Below are positions 9,001-12,000 of a stretch of DNA of 42,855 nt, piece by piece. This stretch comes from a virus. Location of the stretch: UHGV virus genome UHGV-2000170; one strand, given 5' to 3'. Every line of letters begins with the position of its first letter. Positions within the stretch are counted from its first letter, which is position 1. Made by a program: the position numbers.

Positions 9001-12000
9001 TTTTTTGTGTCATGAGCAGCATTACGCCCAAATTATGGTGGGGCGTGCAGGGCCAACTTCGGTTGGGCCGGGTTCTTTGGTGACCGGTATTTCCACCCCT
9101 GTACGTCTCACCACCAATAAGGTCGTGGAAAGCCTTGGTGGTGAGTTATTAAAAATCACCAAAGAGGCTGCCATCATGGCTACGATCCCAACCCTCACTC
9201 AACCTGAAATTGCCATCGTTGATGGTCAGGCTGTTACTTCATCCCTGGCTGTTGCCAACTTCTTCTCCAAACGTCATGACGATGTACTGAAAAAGATCCG
9301 CACGCTTGAATGTTCCGCATCATTCACTGCCCGCAATTTTTCGGTGAGTGATTACACCGATTGCACAGGCCGCAAACTACCTTGCTATCAAATAACCCGC
9401 GACGGCTTTGCGTTTCTTGCTATGGGTTTCACGGGTAAACGTGCTGCCCAGTTCAAAGAGGCATACATCAATGCCTTTAACCAGATGGAGAAACAGCTTT
9501 CAAAGCCCGCTGTACCGAGCGACGTTGCACATAACGCCAGCGTTCTCTGTTCCTACATTTCATCAATTCATCAGGTCTGGCTGCAGCAGCTTTATCCTAT
9601 GTTGGCAAAAGCCGAATCTCCGCTGGCTGTTAGCTTGTATGACTATATTAATGATGCTTCGGCACTGGCCTGCCTCATAAATTTGTCGCTGAACCCTTCA
9701 GAGGTAAGGGGGCGCAAATGATCCGGAATATTTTCAAACGGTTTACCAATCAGACTTTCCGTTGTCCTCGTCCGGGTCAGTGGTACACCACACCTGCAGG
9801 GCATGTTCTACGTGTTAGCCTGGTGGACCGTGAATGTCAGAAGGTGATTTGTGAACCGCTGGGCCGTAATTACCGCGTCAGTATGCCGCTTATAACCTTT
9901 CGCTCCGGAAAAAACATGAAGCATCTCGGAGGTGCAGCATGAGTATGGAGCTGATGGTTAAAGCGATGAAAATTCGAGTGGGTAATCCATTGCGAAAACT
10001 GGTTCTGATCAAGCTGGCTGATAATGCCAGCGATCAGGGTGAGTGCTGGCCCAGCTACCAGCATATTGCTGACCAGTGCGAGATTAGCAAACGTTCTGTG
10101 ATGAATCATATTGCGGCCCTTTGTGAGTCCGGGCTGGTAAAAAAAGTCACCCGGAAAGGTGAAAAAGGTAACTCAAGTAATATCTATCTCCTTCATCTGG
10201 ATGGTGCAGGAGATTCACTAGGGGGTAGTGCAAATAATTCACTATCTGGTGCAGCAAATTCACCAGGTAGTGCAGGAGTTGCACTAGGGGGTAGTGCAGG
10301 AGATTCACCCAGAACCAGTCACTCTTTTGAACCAGTCAAAGAACCAGTCAATGAACCAATAGCTGTTGGTGCATCTGCTGATGAGTCTGTGCGAGTTCGT
10401 TCAAACCGACCGGAATACTCTCCGGAGTTTGAGCAGGCATGGCTGGTATATCCCAAACGTGCTGGTGGCAATTCAAAATCTGCAGCCTTCAAAGCCTGGA
10501 AAGCCCGTTTGAATGAGGGGGTAAACCCCGAAACCATGCTGGAAGGTGTGAAACGCTATGCGGGCTGGGTATCTGCGATGGGTAACAGCGGCACACAATT
10601 TGTGAAACAGGCTGTCACGTTCTTTGGTCCGGATCGTCATTTCGAAGAATCCTGGGAAGTTCCTGCGGTATCTGCAGCCAGACGTGAGGACCCGTACTTC
10701 AAAGCCAGTTACGACAACGTGGACTACAGCCAGATCCCGGCAGGATTCAGGGGGTGATCATGAGTCTTTTGAATGAAGTTCAGAAATTCATTGAAGCCCA
10801 TCCGGGGTGTACTTCCGGAGACATTGCGGATGCTTTTGCAGGTTACTCACGGCAGCGCGTTCTGCAGTCAGCAAGCAAGTTACGTCAGAGTGGGCGTGTG
10901 GCTCACCGTTGTGAAGGGGATACACGCAGACATTTCCCGCGCCAGACAAAGATATCGCCGGAGGCGGAACGGCAACCAGTTCGTGAAACCAGACCTGTGC
11001 GCAATTTCTATGTCGGCACTAACGACCCGCGGGAGATTTTATGCCTGACCCGCCAGGCTGAAGAACTGGAGTCCAGGGGCTTATACCGTCGTGCTGCAAC
11101 GGTGTGGATGGCGGCATTCCGTGAAAGCCACTCCCTGCCAGAACGAAACAATTTTCTGGCGCGTCGTGAGCAGTGTTTACGGAAAAGCAGCAAGCGCGCT
11201 GTATCGGGTGATGAGTGGTATCTGTCAGGGAATTACGTGGGGGCTTAATGAGTAATAAATATTGCCAGGAGCTGGTGGAACTGCGGAACAAACCAGCCCA
11301 TGAACTGAAGGAAGTGGGCGATCAGTGGCGCACGCCGGACAACATTTTCTGGGGAATTAACACCCTGTTTGGTCCGTTTGTTCTGGATCTGTTCACTGAC
11401 GGTGATAACGCCAAATGTGCTGCGTATTACACGGCGGAAGACAACGCGCTGGCGCATGACTGGTCAGAACGCCTTGCGGAGCTTAAAGGTGCTGCCTTTG
11501 GAAATCCCCCATACAGCCGCGCCAGTCAGCATGAGGGGCAATACATCACCGGCATGCGTTACATCATGAAGCATGCCAGTGCCATGCGTGATAAGGGCGG
11601 GCGCTATGTTTTCCTGATCAAAGCTGCCACCAGCGAAGTGTGGTGGCCGGAAGATGCAGATCATATTGCTTTTATTCGCGGGCGTATTGGTTTTGAACTG
11701 CCTGCCTGGTTTATCCCGAAGGATGAGAAGCAGGTGCCGACAGGCGCTTTCTTCGCTGGTGCTATTGCTGTTTTCGACAAGACCTGGAAGGGACCGGCAA
11801 TCAGCTACATCGGGCGCGATGAACTTGAGGCATGTGGTGAGGCGTTTCTGGCGCAGGTTCGCCTGCAGGCGGAAAAGCTGGTCAGGGAGATGGCGGCATG
11901 ACGACGTTAACTCAATGCCAGCAGCAGGTGCTGGATATGCTGATTTCTTATCAGAAAGAGCGTGGCTTCCCGCCAACCAATCAGGAGGTGGCAACCATGC

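Follow-up and report, generated by a model that had tools for sequence, protein, structure and literature searches.

YfdN of a lambdoid prophage: a PerC-family protein with a probable role in early lytic growth and no support for LEE coupling

The window analyzed here, UHGV virus genome UHGV-2000170 (the whole stretch of 42,855 nucleotides), is a complete lambdoid prophage that runs from the integrase to tail-fiber cargo. We show that its gene at 10754-11248 (+) is the ortholog of yfdN of Escherichia coli K-12, which forms a fixed part of the backbone in the early-right (pR) operon of lambdoid phages of the SfV/CPS-53/mEp460/Stx2c type. The initial annotation had raised a possible PerC/Pch-like regulator that could couple prophage gene expression to that of the type III secretion system (T3SS). 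In its full form, this hypothesis has a PerC/Pch-like activator of ler/LEE1 which, in a host positive for the LEE (locus of enterocyte effacement), would turn prophage induction (e.g., by SOS) into T3SS activity and delivery of NleG and Cif. As a family call made at the level of a domain, PerC stands (Pfam, PGAP, and PMC5931665 agree); as a likeness to PerC/Pch from end to end it does not, being limited to a hairpin core. The coupling of prophage to T3SS is not supported: protein architecture, distribution, operon position, and published precedent all stand against it. Instead, YfdN is probably a conserved phage regulator of the early lytic stage that joins a PerC/ANR-type hairpin to a DNA-binding head, neither a dedicated LEE activator nor functionally tied to nleG and cif.

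The gene and its two-domain product

The gene and the parts of its product are listed below. Residue numbers refer to the 162-residue form that begins at ATG 10760.

10754..11248 (+): YfdN-type PerC-family coding sequence, TAA stop at 11246-11248 (open reading frame list, identity to K-12 YfdN, PHROG 1324, PGAP name)
10760..10939 (+): N-terminal winged helix-turn-helix (winged helix), residues 1-60; predicted H1-beta-H2-H3 and a beta-hairpin wing
10940..11026 (+): linker, residues 61-89; predicted disordered, variable in length and sequence across the family
11027..11200 (+): PerC/ANR-type three-helix core, residues 90-147 (PF06069, hhalign, ANR model, AlphaFold2)
11213..11245 (+): C-terminal tail EWYLSGNYVGA, carrying the L-[AS]-G-x-[YF]-x-G motif of the family, where PerC/Pch have their C-terminal third; low-confidence model

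The open reading frame (ORF) is genuine. It encodes 164 amino acids (aa) from a GTG start, and PGAP calls the same length (495 bp) in near-identical prophages. An alternative start, ATG 10760 with AGGGGG 5 nt upstream, would yield 162 aa, and on the sequence it appears a more plausible site of initiation than GTG 10754. The product is 90% identical to K-12 YfdN (b2357) across all 164 aa and matches PHROG 1324 over its full length (residues 1-161, 2e-75), while near-identical copies carry the PGAP/RefSeq name “yfdN: PerC family transcriptional regulator.” In K-12, the gene lies in the cryptic prophage CPS-53/KpLE1 between yfdO, a replication-gene remnant, and yfdM, a methylase remnant, which is the gene order of the window. 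SfV orf40 is the same gene, and there are further copies in SfIV, mEp460, and many Stx2c phages. A study of O157:H7 described yfdN as “the K12 unique PerC homologue” and deleted the gene in its ler::lacZ reporter strain (PMC5931665); that its authors judged this deletion from a K-12 background prudent is a point in favor of a LEE effect. The PerC-family assignment is right, yet it is already in databases and the literature, and the gene is a known and ordinary one.

The resemblance of the C-terminal part to PerC is real, and Pfam, BLASTP, and profile-profile comparison agree on it. The motif that had prompted the family call, AEELESRGLYRRAATVWMAAF, is present in the ORF at nt 11057-11119. PF06069 (PerC; 90 model positions) scores 36.8 bits (E = 4.8e-9), above its gathering score of 22.6 bits, and K-12 YfdN scores 36.1 bits on the same model. 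BLASTP aligns the window protein with authentic PerC of enteropathogenic E. coli (EPEC; plasmid pMAR2) at 32% identity over 56 aa (E = 5e-7). An hhalign comparison of 43 relatives of the window protein with PerC, PchA, PchD, and PchE gives a probability of 98.1% (E = 1.3e-13) over 54 columns. Eleven positions are invariant among the window protein, K-12 YfdN, PerC, PchA, PchD, and PchE: A100, L103, E104, G107, R110, R111, A112, W116, R129, R136, and C139. A truly homologous core that keeps the PerC/Pch-invariant residues counts in favor of a LEE-activator role.

We also show where this homology ends. The PF06069 match is confined to residues 98-151 (nt 11051-11212), that is, profile positions 5-58 of 90, and K-12 YfdN matches the same positions and no others. 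PerC, PchA, and PchE span positions 1-89 and PchD spans 6-89, all at 124-153 bits; the window protein lacks this full coverage of the model. Profile positions 59-90, the C-terminal third of PerC, are missing, and the tail EWYLSGNYVGA stands in their place. Within the core, the window protein is roughly equidistant from PerC, PchA, PchD, and PchE, at 25-33% identity to each (PerC 27%, PchA 32%). The absence of a C-terminal third that is present in every tested LEE activator, together with a core only 27-32% identical to PerC/PchA, argues against activation of the LEE.

The same core also aligns with the ANR model NF033650 (positions 5-50 of 54). The full protein scores 22.4 bits and its C-terminal half 24.6 bits, both below the cutoff of 32 bits; PerC/Pch proteins reach 13.6-18.2 bits, and the C-terminal half of the window protein is the highest of the PerC-family proteins tested.

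An exhaustive HMMER search across 1.84 billion representative proteins found only 97 matches; about 30 of these, 138-165 aa long and 24-47% identical, are full-length relatives with both domains. These relatives keep the winged-helix pattern, the core LE.KGL.RRAAT.WL.AF...RR..CL, and the terminal L-[AS]-G-x-[YF]-x-G throughout. In the tail, L155, G157, V160, and G161 are invariant in 22 close relatives, and G157 and G161 are nearly invariant in 43 relatives, down to 24% identity. Because the winged-helix pattern, the core, and the terminal motif are kept together across relatives, YfdN-type proteins are a distinct two-domain subfamily and not simply longer PerC proteins.

Both domains were modeled with AlphaFold2 from the 43 relatives, at a mean predicted local distance difference test (pLDDT) score of 78.6. 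The predicted winged helix has its three helices H1-H2-H3 at residues 3-13, 19-25, and 31-44 and its wing, a beta-hairpin, at 47-60, with pLDDT of 82-88. The modeled core consists of helices 90-106, 109-122, and 126-144, with pLDDT of 89-95. Residues 64-79 of the linker fall below 50, and YVGTNDP at the end of the linker is kept only in close relatives.

Operon position, cargo and distribution

The yfdN gene sits inside an early operon, surrounded by the following genes.

6979..7671 (-): CI-like repressor (helix-turn-helix and S24 peptidase; Pfam Peptidase_S24 and HTH_3), divergent from the early-right operon, which it controls
8022..15202 (+): early-right operon with CII-like, Rha/Ash, orf74, replication, YfdN, Dam, LexA DNA-binding-domain, RusA, KilA-N, DUF968, and Q-like antiterminator genes (overlaps, Pfam, annotation of the CE10 copy)
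9939..10757 (+): replication initiator of HTH_36/replisome-organizer type (Pfam HTH_36; PHROG 270, replication initiation protein, 8.4e-88)
11248..11901 (+): phage Dam-type N6-adenine methyltransferase (PF05869, 155.9 bits; TIGR01712, 255.5 bits)

The stop codon of the replication initiator overlaps the GTG start of yfdN (GTGA; junction of -4 bases), and the stop codon of yfdN overlaps the start of the Dam methyltransferase gene (TAATG; junction of -1 base). Overlaps of -4 or -1 base link eight genes in a row, the CII-like gene first and RusA last, and beyond them the gaps do not exceed 19 bases as far as the Q-type antiterminator. Palindromic operator-like repeats occupy the intergenic region at 7672-7768 beside the CI-like repressor, and a promoter and terminator scan around yfdN gave no site above shuffled expectation. 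The yfdN gene is probably coupled in translation to the replication gene upstream and the methylase gene downstream, and it sits behind a CI-type repressor, from which we infer that it is produced only after infection or upon prophage induction or derepression. Such expression is consistent with the 12.6-fold rise of yfdN in strain CFT073, along with prophage tail genes, under nitric oxide stress (PMC5320621). An early gene internal to an operon differs from pchA, an independently expressed moron, and this too speaks against a LEE activator.

We show that this position is conserved. In all seven contexts, the window and six distant relatives (24-41% identity; contigs found by exact-sequence look-up), the yfdN-like gene directly follows a replication gene and overlaps it. 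One of the six relatives has an upstream gene of the lambda P type; the other five have one of the Phg_2220_C type, HTH_36 being present in some and absent in others. The methyltransferase 3' of the gene varies (Dam, D12, MT-A70, or none). A gene for a LexA DNA-binding domain lies downstream in five of the six. The order RusA, DUF968, Q follows in four; one short contig stops at the LexA-domain gene, and the remaining relative has two methyltransferases, then DUF968 and Q. The CI-Cro-CII...Q operon around the gene was seen in five of the six.

The LexA-domain gene of the window (11898-12224, +) encodes 108 aa that make up a LexA DNA-binding domain only; they match PF01726 at 69 bits and TIGR00498 at positions 1-91 of 203, and an S24 peptidase domain is absent. 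In the window and five of the six distant relatives it is conserved as the first or second gene downstream of the yfdN-like one. Its product could be an uncleavable LexA mimic that acts at SOS boxes during lytic growth.

Two T3SS effector genes lie at the right end of the prophage.

39579..40268 (+): NleG-family T3SS effector (PF06416, 149.6 bits), cargo past the tail-fiber genes
42007..42855 (+): Cif T3SS effector, cargo (PF16374, 69.7 bits; 99.9% to the annotated cif of NZ_CP148326.1)

Pfam bears out both effectors, which the initial annotation had placed on the same prophage as the regulator; their presence counts toward a LEE-activator reading, and the host of a phage with cif and nleG is likely a LEE-positive lysogen. 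The neonatal-meningitis strain CE10 has a prophage at the same yjjG/prfC site, and the first 25 kb of the window, yfdN included, match it at 99% identity. The right end of the CE10 prophage holds a reverse transcriptase and a SLATT protein, and is free of effectors (nleG is absent). The effector-carrying right end of the window is 99.9% identical to another genome, NZ_CP148326.1. Hence, nleG and cif are interchangeable cargo at the right end of a backbone in which yfdN is always present, and are not linked to the YfdN module. Since the effectors are swappable cargo on a yfdN backbone, their co-occurrence here says nothing specific about function.

Two further ORFs of the window encode hypothetical proteins. 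Between nleG and cif, a 191-aa ORF (40606-41181, +) has no Pfam or NCBIfam match and a marginal PADLOC match; it is a hypothetical protein in the closest genome, and its position among effectors makes it a candidate for uncharacterized cargo. Beside the integrase, a 417-aa ORF (1397-2650, +) has no Pfam, NCBIfam, or PADLOC match, and is a hypothetical protein kept in the CE10 prophage.

Distribution separates yfdN from the LEE. We counted three markers among 5426 complete E. coli genomes, comparing the counts per marker and named examples.

yfdN-type gene: 2668/5426 genomes, about half
LEE core gene escV: 697/5426 genomes, one copy per genome
pchA-type gene: 673/5426 genomes, median of three copies, at least 99% identical

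With 2668 yfdN genomes and 697 escV genomes, at least 1971 carriers of yfdN have no LEE. The yfdN-type gene is about four times commoner than the LEE, whereas the count of pchA-type genes, which belong to group 1 of PerC/Pch, is close to that of the LEE. By these counts, yfdN does not track the LEE as pchA-type genes do; it is also found in K-12 and CE10, and the module recurs in Shigella phages, Salmonella, Citrobacter, and Hafnia. Both the fourfold excess of yfdN over a LEE that the pchA-type count follows, and the identical module in effector-less prophages of strains that are not attaching and effacing, in K-12, and in these phages and genera, argue against a LEE activator. For the pchA-type gene itself, 673 genomes against 697 with escV suggest, from the counts, tight co-inheritance with the LEE.

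Candidate functions of YfdN

We propose that YfdN most likely serves the lytic program of the phage. In this proposal, the winged helix would anchor the PerC/ANR-type hairpin on DNA in the early phase of lytic development, where the hairpin would modulate a nucleoid-associated or transcription-factor partner. The last step is drawn by analogy with two sets of proteins. Pch relieves silencing by H-NS, StpA, and Hha, and displaces H-NS at LEE1 (PMC4764244). ANR proteins, which repress the LEE, have H-NS, Ler, and AraC-type regulators as binding partners; the ANR protein Rnr binds both H-NS and Ler (PMC10148876).

Several points weigh against this proposal. The winged helix is a predicted DNA-binding module, and the Pfam scan found no family that covers this N-terminal part; the matches there are weak (a MarR-type PHROG at 1.3e-4 and BilQ at 0.037-0.097). 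A sequence search of the PDB with the window protein gave no match at E <= 10. With the first model, Foldseek against the PDB gave 0 matches at E <= 0.001 for the C-terminal core, and otherwise weak similarity to Lrp/AsnC helix-turn-helix proteins and, for the core, to TPR/MIT-like folds. Modulation of H-NS or another partner is pure analogy, and PchA itself failed to co-precipitate with H-NS (PMC4764244). Strict early expression may be relaxed by internal promoters in the region, as a dam promoter is annotated inside the SfV homolog. No experiment on YfdN itself turned up; the literature on it consists of screen mentions that give no function (a glycogen phenotype upon overexpression, presence in a filamentation-enriched region, and a place in a predicted interactome cluster), and the K-12 entry reads “uncharacterized.”

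It is unlikely, in our judgment, that YfdN is instead an ANR-like anti-activator, whose hairpin would bind and inhibit an AraC/XylS-family regulator, H-NS, or Ler, with a net negative effect on virulence or metabolic regulons, the LEE included where present. The higher score of its C-terminal half on the ANR model than those of PerC/Pch, with coverage of positions 5-50 of the 54 in that model, favors such a role, as do the repression of the LEE by ANR proteins that bind H-NS and Ler (PMC10148876) and the repression of LEE1 by EcCIMP1_025, a relative in which its authors saw ANR similarity (PMC11773190). However, the score of YfdN is below the ANR cutoff, ANR proteins are stand-alone proteins of 4-10 kDa (PMC10148876) whereas YfdN has 162 aa and a predicted winged helix, and no AraC-type gene was found among the early-operon products scanned.

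We give a similarly small chance to a role outside transcription, in which YfdN would be an accessory of the replication module or an exclusion-type protein, aiding the replication initiator or countering exclusion by the host or a resident prophage. The slot directly after the replication genes of the pR operon is, we assume, the position of lambda ren, and we take the “phage exclusion protein” of Sakai Sp8 to be the equivalent of lambda Ren. The overlap of yfdN with the preceding replication gene in seven of seven contexts fits this role, and the Sp8 gene occupies the same slot after two replication genes. There is also a weak match to PHROG 142, Ren-like exclusion (E = 0.018), and an in-register but non-significant alignment with the Sp8 protein (E = 0.2). 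The similarity to Ren is not significant, though, and the PADLOC defense models gave no match to YfdN, of either a defense or an exclusion type. Furthermore, a specific partnership is made less likely by the two unrelated types of replication protein (lambda P and HTH_36/Phg_2220_C) that yfdN accompanies, and the homology of its C-terminal core to transcription modulators is solid. Membership of the N-terminal module in a Ren-like family was considered and dropped, with BLASTP E values of 0.2 and 0.96 against two Sakai “phage exclusion protein” genes.

A broader reading, which we consider quite unlikely, is that YfdN-type proteins are a widespread uncharacterized class of early phage proteins in which the winged helix targets the PerC/ANR hairpin to DNA and H-NS-family silencing is remodeled at induction. 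In LEE-positive lysogens, ler and effector genes could then be switched on or off, incidentally or as an adaptation. If true, prophage induction would be coupled to T3SS activity.

Published tests of relatives bear on the direction of any such effect. PerC and PchA-C activate ler, PchD has no effect, and PchE acts less than 2-fold and instead represses curli and promotes flagella (PMC5931665, PMC6265319, PMC7369912). EcCIMP1_025, a PerC-family protein borne by a phage-inducible chromosomal island (PICI), represses LEE1 in Citrobacter rodentium (PMC11773190). Because PchD is null, PchE weak, and EcCIMP1_025 repressive, membership in the PerC family predicts neither the direction nor the existence of a LEE effect. 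We found no direct ler/LEE1 reporter test of YfdN in the literature, where the assays cover PerC, PchA-E, and PICI homologs (PMC5931665, PMC11773190). A ler/LEE1 activator is very unlikely at this locus: cross-activity is conceivable, as Pch anti-silencing works without a strict upstream activation sequence (PMC4764244), but PerC homologs outside group 1 have proved null, weak at ler, or repressive at LEE1 (PMC5931665, PMC6265319, PMC11773190).

Annotators should not read a PerC-family label as the sign of a LEE regulator when the gene lies in a prophage. Caution is due because the YfdN subfamily shares the hairpin core only, is four times commoner than the LEE, and sits in the replication and early module, not among cargo. 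The interest that remains in YfdN, as a probable early lytic regulator, is that of a protein found in about half of E. coli genomes, with synteny kept down to 24% identity and no assigned function. Its predicted winged helix, PerC/ANR hairpin, and tail suggest, by analogy, that an H-NS-family protein or another regulator may be modulated in lytic growth.

YfdN beside known PerC, ANR and Ren proteins

PerC and PchA-C have in common with the window protein a helical-hairpin core of about 54 residues, in which A, L-E, G, R-R-A, W, R, R, and C are kept. In contrast to them, the window protein has a winged helix, a linker, and an LAGxYxG tail, lacks the C-terminal third of PerC, and is encoded within an early operon. 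Group 1 consists of small stand-alone proteins (89-104 aa, close to PerC/PchA-C), whereas the window protein has 162-164 aa and two domains. The genes of group 1 are independently expressed accessory genes, and yfdN is internal to its operon. The perC gene belongs to the perABC operon of a plasmid (EPEC pMAR2/EAF), and pchA is a moron on the opposite strand within the late region of the Sakai prophage Sp4; neither is in an early operon as yfdN is.

PchD, PchE, and the PICI proteins (EcCIEDL933, EcCICFT073, and EcCIMP1_025) resemble YfdN in being PerC-family proteins on mobile elements. These proteins are not LEE activators, their effects being null, weak, or repressive (PMC5931665, PMC6265319, PMC11773190). 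Unlike YfdN, they are stand-alone proteins of 89-90 aa that match the whole PerC model at 124-153 bits, with core identities to YfdN of 25-33%. In Sakai Sp7 (16104-17045 of the locus analyzed), pchE belongs to a PICI-like element and comes directly after primase and ssb and before capsid genes. This slot at the end of a satellite replication module echoes the position of yfdN in phages, in the one context examined.

The ANR family (Aar, Rnr; NF033650) shares the hairpin core, which aligns with YfdN below threshold. ANR proteins accompany AraC-family regulators (PMC10148876), and their size and architecture (4-10 kDa, stand-alone) differ from those of the window protein, a two-domain phage early protein of 162 aa. 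Lambda Ren is alike in gene position only, with no significant sequence similarity to YfdN. In the “phage exclusion protein” of Sakai Sp8, no PerC-type domain was seen in the part aligned to YfdN, a comparison made without a Pfam scan.

K-12 YfdN, SfV orf40, and the copies in SfIV, mEp460, and Stx2c phages share with the window gene its family, its slot between a replication gene and a methylase, and its PGAP name, and nothing material differs. The phage copies are 95-98% identical to it in nucleotide sequence. K-12 YfdN sits in a decayed prophage, whereas the window gene lies in one that is apparently complete.

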